DNA of 64,000 nucleotides from Candidatus Spongiisociaceae bacterium (GTDB lineage: Bacteria > Actinomycetota > Acidimicrobiia > Spongiisociales > Spongiisociaceae): assembly GCA_965262915.1 (NCBI GenBank), contig OZ253564.1, forward strand, positions 1,472,001 to 1,536,000, given 5' to 3'. A model generated the notes under the pieces. That model was given only the letters and a program-made list of their open reading frames with translations. It was not told where the DNA came from and ran no database searches. A program made the position numbers and the translations under genes. The first letter of the stretch is position 1, and the number at the start of each line of letters is the position of its first letter. Of this stretch, positions 8,062-26,483 are shown one piece after another.

Positions 8062-8685
8062 ATGGCAATGACGAATCCCATTCCCACCGACGGTCCGATC
8101 CCCGTCGGCGTCATCGCCGGGATCGACGAAACCGTCTTCTCTGAAGACGACAACATCACCATCACCTATGTCCTCGCTGGCGTTGTGTACCGCGACGCCC
8201 AAGCGGCCCGTCGGGCCTTCCAGCAACTTATCGCTGGCCGCAAGGGACCGTTTCACTGGCGGGAAGAAGGCCGCGAGCGCCGTGAGGAAGCAGTCACCCT
8301 CCTAGAAGAGCACGTTGTCGCTACCTACCTGCTTGCTCGACCAACTGGAATCCACCGCCCGCTAGAGGCGCGTCACGAACTTCTCGCCCATCTCGTAGCA
8401 GAACTCCTCAATGACGGAGTCGACCACGTCATCATCGAATCAGCACGGGTTCCAGCCAATGACGGTCGGGACCGCGATACGATCGTGGAATCATTCCGAG
8501 CCGACAGCGCCAACCGTACGTTCACTTACGACTGGCGCACTAAGACCGAGCCGCTGCTGTGGTACCCCGACGCGCTCGCCGGCGTCGCCCATGAATTCCT
8601 CGCCGATGGAAAAGCACACCACTTTCGACGACTTCAGAGAGCAGAAGTCGTCACCGAGATCCGCTACCCCCGTTCTGATCACTGA
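8062..8685 (+). CDS. DUF3800-like (RNase H-fold) protein
   Basis: IDET..YVLAGV, FHWREE, IIES..D..D, EPLLWYPDALAG pattern. AGGAG RBS. Confidence 0.6.
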   Translation: MAMTNPIPTDGPIPVGVIAGIDETVFSEDDNITITYVLAGVVYRDAQAARRAFQQLIAGRKGPFHWREEGRERREEAVTLLEEHVVATYLLARPTGIHRPLEARHELLAHLVAELLNDGVDHVIIESARVPANDGRDRDTIVESFRADSANRTFTYDWRTKTEPLLWYPDALAGVAHEFLADGKAHHFRRLQRAEVVTEIRYPRSDH

Positions 8686-8822: not shown

Positions 8823-8850
8823 ATGTCCGATAATGAACATTATGTAAAGC
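8823..8850 (+). other. dif-like XerC/XerD recombination site A
   Basis: ATGTCCGATAA-TGAACA-TTATGTAAAGC: 11-6-11 architecture with a XerD-type arm TTATGT and a CCGATAA arm as in actinobacterial dif. Confidence 0.8.
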
Positions 8851-8997
8851 TACGGCTGCGGTGTTTCCCCAGGTAGATGACGGTTTCGGGGTAGGGCCGT
8901 CCGGGTCGTGCATAAACCGTCCCAGCCACGGTCGAATATGCGACAGTTAATACCGGTCGACGATGGTCGGCAGAGACCCGGCTGGTTGACGAGCTCC
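8823..8997. repeat. ~175-bp repeat containing the dif-like core; inverted copy 11702-11879, degenerate inverted copy ~19453-19549
   Basis: The reverse complement of 8823-8997 aligns almost base for base with 11702-11879. Blocks ATATTC..CGTGG.TGGG, GGTTTATGCACG and CCGAAACCG recur at 19490-19549. Confidence 0.9.
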
Positions 8998-18090: not shown

Positions 18091-18805
18091 ATGAGCGATG
18101 ACCACGAAACGACCGAAGACCAAGCGGCAGGCGGCGACACGGTTTCCTATGAAGGGTACGTGTACGTGGCGACCAATCCTGCTATACCGAACATGGTCAA
18201 GATCGGCAGCACGACGCAACACGATCCCCGAAGCCGTATCACTGCGCTGTTCACGACCAGTGTGGCCCCTGCCGTTCGAACTGGAGTACGCGGCAGCAAT
18301 AGCGGATGATCCCGCCAGGGTTGAACGGGCGCTGCACAAGGCTTTCACACCTCAACGGCTGCATCCAAGGCGTGAGTTCTTCAAGGTCGAGCCGTACCAG
18401 GTGATCGCGATCCTCAGGCTGCTCAACGTTGCTGACGTCACTGAGCAGGCCAAGTCCGATGTTGAGGCCGAGAAATCACAGGAGGACCGGGAAGCCCTTG
18501 CGCGAGCCAGACGACCAGTGCTCAATTTCGCCGACCTAGGGCTGCCAGAAGGATCGATCCTTACGTATCTGAGAGACGAGAGAGTCAAAGCCGAGATAGT
18601 CGACGGGCGGCGTGTGCGACTTATCGAACTGCCCGAAAACAAGTACCCCGCAGTCGTGTTGGACGGCGAACCTTCGTTCCTTTCGCCGCTCTCAAGAGAC
18701 CTTCTCGGGGTTGCACGTTATGTGGGCCCCACCCGGTACTGGCGTGTTGAGGACGGACGGTCACTCCTTGAGATCTACGACGAGAAGCACGGTCCAAGGG
18801 AGTAG
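18091..18805 (+). pseudogene. GIY-YIG (T5orf172-type) nuclease, frameshifted at ~18265
   Basis: GYVYVATNPAIPNMVKIGST..TTSV | PLPFELEYA..VERALH..RREFF split across two frames. Confidence 0.8.
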
Positions 18806-19577
18806 CACACCTCTCTGCCTACCTACGCCGGCTAGACCAGCACCCCGTCAACGCCTCGGCTGCTCAAGCTCTTCGAGGGCCAACGTGGCTATGAAAACAT
18901 CGGGGGAGGAACCCTGTACGCAGCACAGGGACGTGGGTGAAATACTGTCAGTTCGGTCCCGCTACAACGAACGCCCACGGTCGAGGAACATCGTGAGCGT
19001 GCGGCTCCCGGCGGGGCTTCTTCTCTGGAGTCTGTCCACGAGAGCACTCTCGCGGACTCGATTTCTCTCCCTTCCGCTGGGGGCTCGGCCGGCCGCCGAC
19101 AGCGGTTACCGGTCCGGTGGTCTCACTAGCCTTAGCGGTTCCGTTTGGGTGGGTGTCGGTTGGGGGAGTGGAGGCGGCAGTGGTCGGCCGGGTTGTAGAT
19201 GGATAGGCGTGCTGTGCAGCTGTCGGTGGCGCAGCGGCGGCCGGGGGGATATGTGGGTGGTGGTCGGCCTTTGGGGGGTAGGACTCTGGTCATAGGGGGT
19301 TGACGGTACCCGGGAGCGGTTTCCGCTGACGGCCGGCGGCATCGGAGTATCCCTCCGTCGGGGGGCTGAGGGATCAGCCGGGCGGGCTGTTGGGGAGCTT
19401 CCGTCTCAGGTCTGCGCCGGGTGACTCGGGCGTTAGGGAGCGGGGGAACGGAGAGTCTGTAGCCTATCGTTGACTAGCGCTGTGTGGTGTATATTCAAAC
19501 GTGGGTGGGCGGGTTTATGCACGGGGCTGGCCGGCTGTTGCCGAAACCGGCTTTTACACCAACGCGATAATATAACG

Positions 19578-19943
19578 AACATCGAAACAGCCGCCCGCAA
19601 GCTGAGGCAGGGCGCGCAGGTGCGGGAAGGTCTCATCGTGGAAGAGGTTGAGGAGTTCGACTACGACCGTAGCCTCGGCACCAACGCCGAGGAGTTGGCC
19701 CTGTCTGTCCAGTTCACGGTCGGTGTGGTTGTGAGGCGTGCTCGGGTGCTTCGTACCCGAGCCCGGTTCGATGAGTGGGCGGCCACTATCCGGGTGGATA
19801 CAGATCCTGAGTTGGTGGACCGTGAACAGTTGCTGACCTGGTTGGACATTGGGGGGCGTCGTATCGGGGTGGGGAATTGGCGGCCGGAGAAGTCAGGCCA
19901 GTTCGGACGGTTCGAGGTCAAAAACATACAAACCATCTCATAG
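19578..19943 (+). pseudogene. Phage-type RAMP/Cas7-like protein, C-terminal ~120 aa (N-terminus apparently missing)
   Basis: AARKLRQG..VVVRRARVLRTRARFDEW..L..GGRRIGVGNWRPEKSGQFGRFEV, a Gly-rich C-terminal loop. The upstream part of ORF 19470 overlaps a non-coding repeat. Confidence 0.6.
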
Positions 19944-19954
19944 CGAAGACAGAC

Positions 19955-20098
19955 AGCGTGGCGTGGCTTCGCCTGGCAGGGCTGGGCTCGGCGCCGCACC
20001 GCAGAGCGTGGCTCCGCACCGCACCGAAACCGGACAGGGCCGGGGACAGTGACACACCCTGGGAAACCCGGGTTGGCCACACCCCCCGCCCCGTCCGG
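19955..20098 (+). ncRNA. Putative guide-like RNA: 14 phased (G/C/A)GC-NN pentamers plus 3' hairpin
   Basis: AGCGT GGCGT GGCTT CGCCT GGCAG GGCTG GGCTC GGCGC CGCAC CGCAG AGCGT GGCTC CGCAC CGCAC (19955-20024), followed by a stem-loop at 20030-20098. Transcription is not shown. Confidence 0.55.
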
Positions 20099-20449
20099 TC
20101 AACAGCCCTGAAGTGAACCGTACCGGGTTTCCCAGAGAGTGTTTTACTTGAGTCCAGCTAGCTGGACTCGGTTCTGCTCACGATGGTAGTTGGCCTCCTT
20201 TTCTGCTGGTGGGATGTCTCCGATGGGTTCGAGGAGCCGGCGGTGGTTGAACCAGTCGACGTATTCGAGGGTGGCGTACTCGACTTGGTCGAGGTCCTTC
20301 CACGGAGCGCGTTTGTGGATGAGTTCTGTCTTGTATAGGCCGATGACGGATTCGGCGAGGGCGTTGTCGTAGGAATCCCCAACCGAGCCGACTGATGGTT
20401 CGATGCCGGCTTCGGTGAGCCGGTTCGTGTAGCGAATGGACAGATATTG

Positions 20450-22859
<2,410 letters not shown>

Positions 22860-23883: not shown

Positions 23884-24101
23884 GAACCCTCGGAGGCCGG
23901 CACCCGGCCTGAAGGTTGATGCGAGGCTTCGTCCGGCACGTCCCGACTTCGTTATGCGGGCAAGCCTCGAGAGACTCAAGATCCCGGCTTTGCGGGCAAC
24001 GTTCGACTGGCCTTGCCAAACAGTGGCTGCACTCGAAGCTCGTGGTGGGTCACAGAAGATCGAAGAGGAGCAACGAACTGACGGTTACCCTTCCAGCCGG
24101 T

Positions 24102-26483
24102 ATGACAGAACCCTCTTCCACCCTTGGCTGGCACGGGTACCGGGTGGTTGGTGTCCTGTTCATGGCGGTACCAACCGCGGCCGGCCTTGCATGGTGGTTT
24201 GCCGAGACCCATAGCGGACCTCTACTTCGGGACGCTCTGACCGCTGCCCTAGTGCCTGTCGGATTCATCATCGCGTTCGGATTCGGATATGCGGGAAACA
24301 CGTTCTCCAGACGTCTTGCCCTGTATGGGTACGAAAGGGAGACACACCCGGCGATTCTCGTTCTTCTGTTCTTTGGCCTCGCTGTTGGAACAGTGGCTCT
24401 GATTCTTGTCTATCTGGCGCTCGGAGACAGAGACAACTTGTGCTTGGGTCCCTGTCGTCTCGCCGTCCCGCTTCCATGGATAAACGCGTACTGGCAGCCG
24501 CTACTGGTGGCGCATTCCACGATCGGCCAGTTAGCTACGGCAGGAGTAGGGATGGTGCTTGCGGGGTCAGTTCAGGTGCTCTTCGGTCTACTTCATCCAC
24601 GTCGGCTCGATGTGTACTCGCACAACCTCCTCCTCGGACGCCGCTTCGCTGCCCGGCTCCTTGACAGCTTGGTCCTCTTGGCGTCGACCTTCTGCATGAT
24701 CGAGTATGGCCCCGAGTTGCTCGTCGGCCGCTTCGGGCTGTCATGGACGGCCGCTCGAGTCACTCTCAGCTGTCTGCTCTTGGCGCTGCCCTTCTTATAC
24801 GAGGTCACTCCCCAGTTCGGCTGGAAGTGGTGGCTCGGGTTGCGGCTGGTAGCCCCTCCCGACGGTAGACCGGTCGCTATAGGGCGGTTAGCTGTACGGG
24901 CGCTCGTCACGTCACTTGTGTTCTCTCTCGGTATCGACGCGGCAGTTGTCCTTTGGACCATCGAAGGTTCGTATTTATTCTGGGTCATGGTCGGGCGGAT
25001 GCTGCTCCTGGTCGCTCTGATCCCAGCGGTGGTGCATCCACACGGCCAGGGATTCCATGACGTACTGCTGGGTACCCAAGTCCGCGGCGATCTCGATGGA
25101 GACACGGAACCGGGCCAGTCTTCCGAGTCCGAAGGGCTACGGCTCCGCTCCGCGGATTTCACTGCCGACGAGGACGATCCGTTCGCGAACGACCTACTGG
25201 ACCGTCAACCCCAGGTCGAGTATCTCTCCGCTGTGATCACGGCAACGGATAGCCCACTTGTGGTGATGGTTGACGCGCCGTGGGGTAGCGGCAAAACCGC
25301 ATTCCTAAGGATGTGCGCTGCCCACCTGCGACACCAAGGCGTTACTGTGGCGGAGTTCAACGCCTGGACCGACCAACATACCCAGCAGCCGCTCCTTGAC
25401 ATGGTCGGTGCGCTCTCGGCCCGCCTTCCAAAAGGGGCTGCCACCCGTATCGGGTCGGCTGCCTCGGGCCTGCTCACCCTGCTCACCACCGACCATCCCA
25501 GCCCAAGGATTGATTCGTGGGATGACCACAACCGGGCCGTGAGATCGTTCACCGAATCGTTAGCGGAAGTAGCGGCCGATCGCGGGCGTCTGGTCGTGAT
25601 CGTGGATGAGCTCGACCGTTGCCGACCTGAATACACACTCGGGATACTGGCGGACATCCACCATCTCTTCTCAGTAGACGGGGTCACGGTTCTGCTCGGC
25701 GTTAACCGTCGCCAACTATGTCACGCTGTGCAAGCCGTGTACGGACTCAGCTTCGATGCAGACTCGTATCTTAGGCGATTCGTCGATATCCCTATTAACT
25801 TGCCCTCCCCGAACCGCACAGAACTTGAAGCTTTCCTCGACCATCTGTACGCCGAATCCCGTCTTCACGGCCGGACTTCGCGTGGACTGGCCAAGTGGCC
25901 AGCTACGAGAGCCGTGCTCCGCCTGGTTATCGAGCTCAAGTCGTGTTCATTACGGGATCTGCAGCAGGCTGCCCATATCTACGCTCTAGCGCTGGTCAAG
26001 CGGGTTCCCGATGATCATCCGTACGATGTGTGGCAACTTTCGGTCGCAGCGATGGTCGTGTTGCGCGTCGCGGACCGGGACGCCTACGACCGCTTTGTAG
26101 TTGGCCAATCCGACAGCTTCGAGGCTCTGACCTCCGCTTACGCTGCTCTCGGGCCGGAACCACATCTGAGGCCTACGGACACGCTGCCCCATGGAACCCG
26201 AAGGGATCACTTCGCTGCCGCCTTGATCAACATCGGGTCGCGCGACGACTGGTGCGATACCATCAGCGGTGCTGAAGATGCGTTCGTAGAGCGGTACCGG
26301 CGCGCCCACGCTGCTCTCCCACAATCTATCGAGGGTTCTCCACGGGATTCGACACAGGCTGCCCGCGATGTCCTCAAGATTCTCTGCCATATAAGGAGTT
26401 GCTATCAGCCACTACCTGTCTGGCGCACCTTGGAAGCAGACAGACTGGCCAACTTGATCGACCTCGCTGTCGATCTCCGATGA
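24102..26483 (+). CDS. Multi-TM RDD-domain / KAP-family P-loop NTPase fusion
   Basis: RRFAARLLD..KWWLGLRLV..QGFHD (RDD); DAPWGSGKT, FNAW, VIVDELDRC, YLRRFVD (KAP). Start uncertain; ORF is open from 23916. Confidence 0.8.
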   Translation: MTEPSSTLGWHGYRVVGVLFMAVPTAAGLAWWFAETHSGPLLRDALTAALVPVGFIIAFGFGYAGNTFSRRLALYGYERETHPAILVLLFFGLAVGTVALILVYLALGDRDNLCLGPCRLAVPLPWINAYWQPLLVAHSTIGQLATAGVGMVLAGSVQVLFGLLHPRRLDVYSHNLLLGRRFAARLLDSLVLLASTFCMIEYGPELLVGRFGLSWTAARVTLSCLLLALPFLYEVTPQFGWKWWLGLRLVAPPDGRPVAIGRLAVRALVTSLVFSLGIDAAVVLWTIEGSYLFWVMVGRMLLLVALIPAVVHPHGQGFHDVLLGTQVRGDLDGDTEPGQSSESEGLRLRSADFTADEDDPFANDLLDRQPQVEYLSAVITATDSPLVVMVDAPWGSGKTAFLRMCAAHLRHQGVTVAEFNAWTDQHTQQPLLDMVGALSARLPKGAATRIGSAASGLLTLLTTDHPSPRIDSWDDHNRAVRSFTESLAEVAADRGRLVVIVDELDRCRPEYTLGILADIHHLFSVDGVTVLLGVNRRQLCHAVQAVYGLSFDADSYLRRFVDIPINLPSPNRTELEAFLDHLYAESRLHGRTSRGLAKWPATRAVLRLVIELKSCSLRDLQQAAHIYALALVKRVPDDHPYDVWQLSVAAMVVLRVADRDAYDRFVVGQSDSFEALTSAYAALGPEPHLRPTDTLPHGTRRDHFAAALINIGSRDDWCDTISGAEDAFVERYRRAHAALPQSIEGSPRDSTQAARDVLKILCHIRSCYQPLPVWRTLEADRLANLIDLAVDLR

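Follow-up and report, generated by a model that had tools for sequence, protein, structure and literature searches.

A truncated VIPR locus in a Spongiisociaceae genome and a suggested link between Vipr residues 17 and 177 and the first base of the vrRNA repeat

VIPR, a CRISPR-related RNA-guided DNA binder made up of a Vipr protein, a vrRNA and a vap gene, was described in 2026 (10.64898/2026.04.26.720920). In the published mechanism one protomer covers each pentamer of the vrRNA: the GGY triplet is buried, the two remaining bases (NN) are paired, one target base is skipped and a triplex R-loop is formed (10.64898/2026.04.26.720920; accessible passages of 10.64898/2026.04.26.720927). The available text of the structure paper assigns the reading of the first base of GGY, G1, to H17 and D177 in the SUSP1 Vipr, in which the change D177A abolishes silencing, and gives H17 and D175 for the Vipr of P. 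fulva; in the bundle of the SUSP1 protein, replacement of K33 by alanine abolishes silencing and replacement of R39 by alanine reduces it (10.64898/2026.04.26.720927). Repeats other than GGY are also on record. The original report names NNNGG, YNNNG and NNNNG (10.64898/2026.04.26.720920), and passages of a later one describe the non-canonical clusters GAC/NN, CAC/NN, WGT/NN and TGH/NN (10.64898/2026.10.21.760802). Orphan vrRNAs that redirect Vipr have been reported from E. coli satellites, according to the accessible part of 10.64898/2026.10.15.759431. The terms 'CGY' and 'YNNCG' are absent from the supplement text of 10.64898/2026.04.26.720920 and from a literature search; the available passages of 10.64898/2026.10.15.759431 contain no CGY, H17 or D177, and those of 10.64898/2026.10.21.760802 contain neither CGY nor a residue linked to the motif. 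The same search, whose coverage stops short of subscription journals, returned no paper tying Vipr residues to repeat variants.

The locus considered here lies in the genome of a Candidatus Spongiisociaceae bacterium (GCA_965262915.1, contig OZ253564.1, positions 1,472,001 to 1,536,000). The window is this whole stretch of 64,000 nucleotides, and coordinates given without a contig name refer to it (Table 1). A preliminary description, made from the sequence alone, had proposed a non-CRISPR RNA-guided system in which a RAMP/Cas7-like protein polymerizes along a phased pentamer tract. That system has already been described, as VIPR (bioRxiv 2026), and the mechanism proposed for it is the published one. 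The suspected likeness to VIPR is borne out by homology of the 121-residue product to PDB 36pp_D, 'SUSP1 Vipr protein' (E=6.8e-8), which together with the structural matches of an intact homologue, given below, also upholds the proposed RAMP fold. The product aligns with the C-terminal region of longer proteins (36 matches, 46–80% identity).

Table 1. Features of the vipr locus, in window coordinates
Feature	Coordinates	Strand	Basis or remark
Repeated genomic element	19066..19557	.	Occupies the site of the HNH gene and vipr codons 1-77 in relatives
vipr 3' fragment, residues 78-198 of 198	19578..19943	+	P0043 and PDB 36pp_D alignment
Asn codon at the SUSP1 Asp177 site (G-loop, reads G1)	19875..19877	+	Alignment to SUSP1 numbering
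vrRNA repeat tract, 14 NGC-NN units	19955..20024	+	Phased unit scan
Predicted vrRNA 3' tail hairpin	20029..20099	+	Folding; similar in L082
End of IS-like element, inserted just past the tail	20112..20731	-	Many genome copies of 20112-20250

The fragment ends with a stop codon at 19941-19943. No start codon lies at position 19578, from which the gene had initially been drawn; the open frame reaches back to 19437, and homology begins at about 19576-19578. Judged by the model of the intact homologue L082, what survives is the end of helix 1, the thumb, with the equivalent of R138, and the Gly-rich C-terminal G-loop, which reads at 19851-19913 as first described; the equivalents of W178 and R179 are likewise retained (SUSP1 numbering). 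The fragment is without the beta-1 strand, the helical bundle and a native start, and the lost residues 1-77 comprise RRM strand 1 including residue 17, the helical bundle and the start of helix 1. As the repeated element has replaced codons 1-77, any product would be devoid of RRM strand 1 and the bundle and therefore could not work. The missing N-terminus, suspected from the outset, is found neither at the locus nor in the rest of the genome by tblastn, and the HNH partner gene is absent from both as well (best tblastn E=0.19). A frameshifted N-terminus lying upstream was ruled out, since none was present in three frames or by tblastn of 36 homologues.

The element that abuts the fragment is about 490 bases long and occurs about ten times in the genome: blastn finds ten other copies of ~19079-19312 at 84–89% identity plus one partial copy, and three copies of 19466-19557. 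Several copies extend to a dif-like site. Such XerC/D-type sites occur in the window at 8826 (+) and 11876 (-), and 15 are present in the genome, clustered in island regions; as several end the element that abuts the truncated vipr, they possibly mark dif-flanked mobile modules. On the other side, further IS pieces extend downstream to ~22860, where the open reading frames of 20457-22859 encode an integrase core and an HTH domain (Pfam). Five public runs from two studies contain all 78 sampled words of 19300-20110, and the source may be among them; two other public runs yielded contig pieces in which gene, tract and tail are identical to those of the window. Among the contig pieces listed from four runs none bridges the truncation junction, and no public run containing the stretch 19300-20110 is recorded as RNA.

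Residues 1-77 and the HNH gene having been replaced, and the only other Vipr of the genome being truncated too, the window locus is a VIPR relic, a member of the Vipr family with an incomplete reading frame. The fragment is identical to residues 78-198 of the intact protein P0043 at 118 of 121 positions, and these three differences mark the break as recent. The second Vipr gene (C1:546560-546220, minus strand) is 5'-truncated and carries Asp177; its tract (C1:541914-541865, minus strand) has ten units, all GGC, and gene and tract are separated by ~4.3 kb of IS insertions that start inside the tract. A third broken vipr, cut by an IS, lies in a genome of the same genus (L086, G002:C2:3129753-3129982). 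Truncation of the vipr cassette thus recurs within the genus.

The neighbourhood is in a similar state, with frameshifted and IS-interrupted genes, and several neighbours in the window match the PADLOC candidate defence families PDC-S57, PDC-S32, PDC-S20 and PDC-M14B. A T5orf172/MUG113 gene at 18098-18805 (PDC-S57, E=1e-35) seems to be frameshifted near 18270, its N-terminal motif lying in another frame, and an 855-residue fusion of an RDD membrane domain with a KAP NTPase is encoded at 23916-26483 (PDC-S20; PifA/QatA-like). The reported absence of CRISPR components stands: no Cas1 is found anywhere in the genome by a search that was positive in seven of 14 reference genomes, and the four families of close-spaced direct repeats in the window include none that is CRISPR-like. 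Rfam gave no match at E<=1 over 18700-20300. The locus is accordingly judged a recent relic inside a decaying defence-like island. Being a defunct copy of a system known since 2026, it has little importance by itself.

The tract is preserved as it was first noted: 14 consecutive 5-nt units begin eleven bases past the stop codon, with GC at positions 2-3 in all 14 and the triplets GGC seven times, CGC five times and AGC twice. Scanned on both strands, the 5.06-Mb genome contains 5790 phased GC runs of three units, 600 of four, 46 of five, ten of six, two of ten and two of 14. The last two are the window tract read from either strand, which is therefore the longest phased GC run of the genome (expectation from the GC dinucleotide frequency, 2e-8), and the two runs of ten are the tract of the second VIPR. 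In the register of 10.64898/2026.04.26.720920 the window tract is YNNNG. The possibility that its CGC units represent an antisense GGY tract was rejected, as position 4 is variable. The 28 variable NN bases constitute a putative guide, for which the target searches described below found no match above chance. Over nine units the tract can be aligned with that of L082, 15 of 18 NN bases being equal and divergence setting in beyond, which points to a common origin and perhaps a common target of the two guides. Among the 40 best-supported variant rows from related contigs two fall within the tract (19969 and 19973), both at NN positions. The hairpin that had been seen after the tract is indeed predicted, although by itself it is modestly stable (z = -1.9; seven of 200 shuffles equally good); a similar one follows the L082 tract, and in this comparison of two sequences both bases differ in four of 19 pairs.

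Of 114 relatives obtained in a scan of genomes, the best 80 were retained. Many phyla are represented among them, including Dehalococcoidia, Binatia, Alphaproteobacteria and Acidimicrobiia, and carrier names such as Poriferisocius and Spongiisociaceae presumably point to sponge symbionts. The expectation that full-length homologues would be accompanied by downstream period-5 tracts with variable NN is confirmed: vipr is full length in 74 of the 80, a phased tract lies near the gene in 75, mostly directly after the stop, and the NN bases differ between homologues. In 55 of the 80 a small CxxC-H-CxxCH (HNH-like) gene is situated directly upstream of vipr. L082, from a genome of the same family and 85% identical, is the sole intact locus of the window subclade seen with its DNA; it consists of a small HNH gene, a 198-aa Vipr, one vrRNA of ~14 pentamers and a hairpin tail. 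Its upstream partner resembles HNH endonucleases (ESM Atlas 0.96), and its Vipr matches PDB 36pp_D at E=9.6e-11. The AlphaFold2 model of the L082 protein (pLDDT 92.4) has Csm and type VII CRISPR complex chains as its best Foldseek matches, in a library that predates the Vipr entries, and agrees with Class 1 CRISPR chains at E ~6e-4 and TM ~0.5. Neither the window fragment nor the intact Vipr nor the HNH partner has a Pfam match, and PADLOC gave none for the latter two. The ancestral cassette is HNH gene, vipr, vrRNA and tail. Beyond L082 no further loci of the window subclade were found among 28 family genomes; a search of 400 genomes of the phylum with a distant-clade profile gave two distant matches, and no relative emerged from a viral scan with P0004.

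Several other arrangements were encountered among the collected loci. In L077, vipr encodes a His/Asp protein and is followed by T-rich NGC tracts and preceded by a GGC array on the opposite strand. L002 carries, ~3 kb from its GGY arrays, a second type of pentamer array (8237-8326 and 8840-8879), whose units have GT/GC at positions 2-3 when read on the plus strand and resemble GAC on the minus strand; it may belong to a further VIPR that uses another scaffold. In L155 an unbroken run of 112 pentamers starts directly past the vipr stop. The Gordonia phages UmaThurman and ODay and the Mycobacterium phage Quico (L238-L240) have Vipr homologues and GGY arrays, the array of UmaThurman being annotated as a hypothetical gene (gp40); the two Gordonia phages have Glu in place of Asp177.

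The feature that sets the window subclade apart concerns the two residues that read G1. The numbering of the structure paper is reproduced by the SUSP1 gene sequence at H17, K33, R39, K82, R138, D177, W178 and R179; at position 175 the gene has V where the paper gives T. At site 177 the window fragment has Asn, and all 78 readable relatives among the 80 loci have Asp. Intact L082 and P0043 are both Asp17/Asn177, and Asp17 is presumed for the window copy from P0043, residue 17 being deleted there. The L082 tract is relaxed at the first base (G4 C3 A5 T1 over 13 counted units); in L001, which is 80% identical and His/Asp, 15 of 15 units are GGC. All seven departures of the window tract from GGC fall at position 1 (hypergeometric 1.3e-4 under even decay; binomial 1e-3 at the 13% non-G rate of relatives). 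In a FastTree phylogeny of 89 selected rows, built without columns 17 and 177, the window belongs to a clade of ten rows (support 98) nested among His/Asp rows; every row of this clade has Asn or Ser at 177, and Asp17 where the residue is present. With Asp17/Asn177, a relaxed tract in L082 and departures confined to position 1, the relaxed first base is a heritable trait of the subclade, tied to the residue swap, and not decay.

The association was followed in a wider sample. DNA patterns of the G-loop fetched Asn-type loci (18 metagenomic, 5 + 4 viral, some of them not Viprs) and 61 Asp-type viral loci. A tract finder that ignores base 1 was applied to the 152 loci whose G-loop could be recognised, and identical proteins and loci of fewer than six units were removed for a de-duplicated set. 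The sample is biased, because retrieval relied on G-loop patterns and the finder requires GY at positions 2-3. Within it, the 96 de-duplicated His/Asp loci comprise 90 with a G majority at position 1, none with a C majority and six that are not G-majority. The nine Asp/Asn loci include none with a G majority and seven with a C majority (83–100% C). G prevails in 12 of 12 Asn/Asp loci, in three of four His/Asn loci (the exception is L113), in all three loci with Asp177 and residue 17 missing, and in all six later loci with Asp or Glu at 177. The two Asn/Asn loci are divided, one having a G majority and the other, L111, a C majority without Asp17; of the two Arg/Asp loci, L022 is an antisense miscall. 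Two later loci, L236 (Gln/Asn; 19/25) and L237 (His/Asn; 49/49), are rich in G, and L094 (Asp/Asn) is evenly mixed (G5 C5 A7 T6). Across 150 representatives at <50% identity, Asp17 occurs in seven, with N (four), S, G and A at 177 and never with Asp or Glu, which are found at 177 in 116 of the other 143. Two simpler rules did not hold. A change of Asp177 to Asn alone as the switch is ruled out, as His/Asn and Gln/Asn loci mostly keep G, and a strict amino-versus-keto rule is weakly supported, the non-G bases of His/Asp loci being T 186, C 120 and A 119 and L094 evenly mixed.

Trees place five changes to Asp/Asn. A single clade for all Asp/Asn rows is rejected (AU p=2e-35), while one clade for the eight distant Asp/Asn rows is not (AU p=0.19), so that two to five origins of Asp/Asn are indicated. 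Independent pairs on supported branches number three among 55 selected rows, and the three agree in direction (sign test p=0.25); the phylogenetic support for the residue-repeat link is thus suggestive, and not significant. The company that Asp17/Asn177 keeps with C-starting repeats in distant VIPRs suggests a simple recognition switch, of which the window subclade is a probable case.

Taken together, the locus is most likely a recently 5'-truncated, HNH-associated VIPR of carriers that are sponge symbionts by name, in whose subclade a swap from His17/Asp177 to Asp17/Asn177 goes with the loss of G at position 1. Expression, binding and cutting are presumed, as is a causal role of the swap in the repeat change. 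In the intact form, according to the published mechanism, one Vipr would sit on each pentamer, burying the triplet and presenting NN to double-stranded DNA with one target base skipped, and the HNH protein would probably cut the bound DNA. In the window the repeated element has displaced the HNH gene and codons 1-77, leaving tract and tail whole. In terms of base chemistry, the Watson-Crick face of G offers an acceptor and then donors, which would suit His followed by Asp; C and A offer a donor and then an acceptor, which would suit Asp followed by Asn. The swap may therefore reverse the donor/acceptor pattern at the pocket, with C at position 1 as the outcome in distant lineages and a mixture of G, C and A in the young window subclade, whose window units, still half G, would reflect a recent switch with residual tolerance. 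The CGC arrays, the lack of any Asp/Asp pair and the prevalence of C and A among the departures of the subclade agree with such a reversal; it leaves unexplained the even mix of L094, the C of L111 without Asp17 and the half-G window units. The stronger proposal, that the two-residue swap turns scaffold reading from GGY to CGY (with A tolerated), that it arose at least twice and that the subclade is caught mid-change, the protein switched and the repeats half G, is one to which we would give an even chance.

A less probable but tenable account accepts the same relic and holds that the swap merely abolishes recognition of G1, so that position 1 drifts, the distant CGC tracts being due to shared descent or mutation bias. 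Both tracts of the window subclade and that of L094 are mixed and not CGY, as drift would have it, the distant CGC rows may share a single clade, and the published YNNNG consensus has a free first base (10.64898/2026.04.26.720920). Free drift would not, however, maintain C at 83–100% in seven loci; Asp17 is accompanied by an acidic residue 177 in none of the seven distant representatives, and loci with Asn177 and no Asp17 mostly keep G (L091, L100, L099, L089, L236 and L237).

It is improbable that the vrRNA continues to serve as an orphan guide or a decoy, with transcription starting in the upstream repeated element and running through the truncated gene, and with loading onto a Vipr that a mobile element brought in. 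Tract and tail are intact although the gene is broken, the identical tract-and-tail pieces in two other public runs are in keeping with such a role, and orphan vrRNAs of E. coli satellites redirect Vipr (accessible passages of 10.64898/2026.10.15.759431). But the break is recent, at three residue differences from P0043, so that selection need not be invoked for an intact tract; a search for a sigma-70 consensus promoter gave none, and the other VIPR of the genome has an IS within its tract. A decoy target in the own genome does not rise above chance, the best site with a 1-nt skip agreeing at 21 of 28 NN bases and shuffled guides reaching 19–23. Target searches elsewhere, which were stricter than the 80% threshold of 10.64898/2026.04.26.720920, were negative at <=3 mismatches for the window guide in 101 relatives and in 50 homologue-bearing genomes (50 of the 80 loci); the L082 guide gave 0 of 41. 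In IMG/VR the exact 11-unit pattern of the window guide has no match; 8-unit seeds gave 30 + 18 matches, and the best of these 48 (23/28, with 16 bases forced by the seed) is judged to be chance. The truncation and the frameshifted and IS-interrupted neighbours might suggest that a GGY tract decayed at random once the gene had died. Such decay can hardly account for the non-G first bases, as the changes are restricted to position 1 (p=1.3e-4) and intact L082 shows the same pattern with an intact gene, which largely refutes it.

The correlation between residues and repeat outweighs the locus in importance, as the accessible VIPR texts give alternative motifs without a protein determinant. Were the switch real, nature would provide orthogonal Vipr/vrRNA pairs and an escape from GGY decoy guides. 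Should the scaffold base be set by two residues, multiplexed DNA binding could draw on orthogonal guides, the sequence of a Vipr would predict the vrRNAs that it loads, callers based on GGY would miss CGY arrays, and a case of stepwise change in a protein and its RNA code would be at hand.

Among described systems the SUSP1 VIPR is alike in its homologous protein, in 9–16 pentamers followed by a tail, which in the window is predicted to be structured, and in the lack of a CRISPR array or cas1, and the window tract fits the alternative YNNNG consensus of 10.64898/2026.04.26.720920. The window copy differs in being truncated and deprived of its vap gene, and its subclade has Asp17/Asn177 where SUSP1 has His17/Asp177; it is moreover chromosomal, with a single guide and an HNH partner in relatives, whereas SUSP1 carries four guides and a vap1 predicted to bind DNA. 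The His17/Asp177 pair by which canonical GGY-reading Viprs (SUSP1, P. fulva) read G1 is replaced in the window subclade. Nuclease-associated VIPRs of defence islands (types III and V) resemble it in the HNH gene upstream in relatives and in the PADLOC defence-like neighbours, and differ in that the first base of the window subclade is relaxed; by elimination from the legend of fig. S21 of 10.64898/2026.04.26.720920, an HNH vap is probably type III. The non-canonical clusters, in the available passages of 10.64898/2026.10.21.760802, likewise have pentamer arrays adjacent to Vipr and a fixed triplet that is not GGY. With the Cas7/Csm3 RAMPs of Class 1 CRISPR systems the fold and the G-loop are held in common, yet sequence identity is 10–12%, there is no cas operon or array, and the pentamer scaffold of Vipr takes the place of a contiguous spacer.
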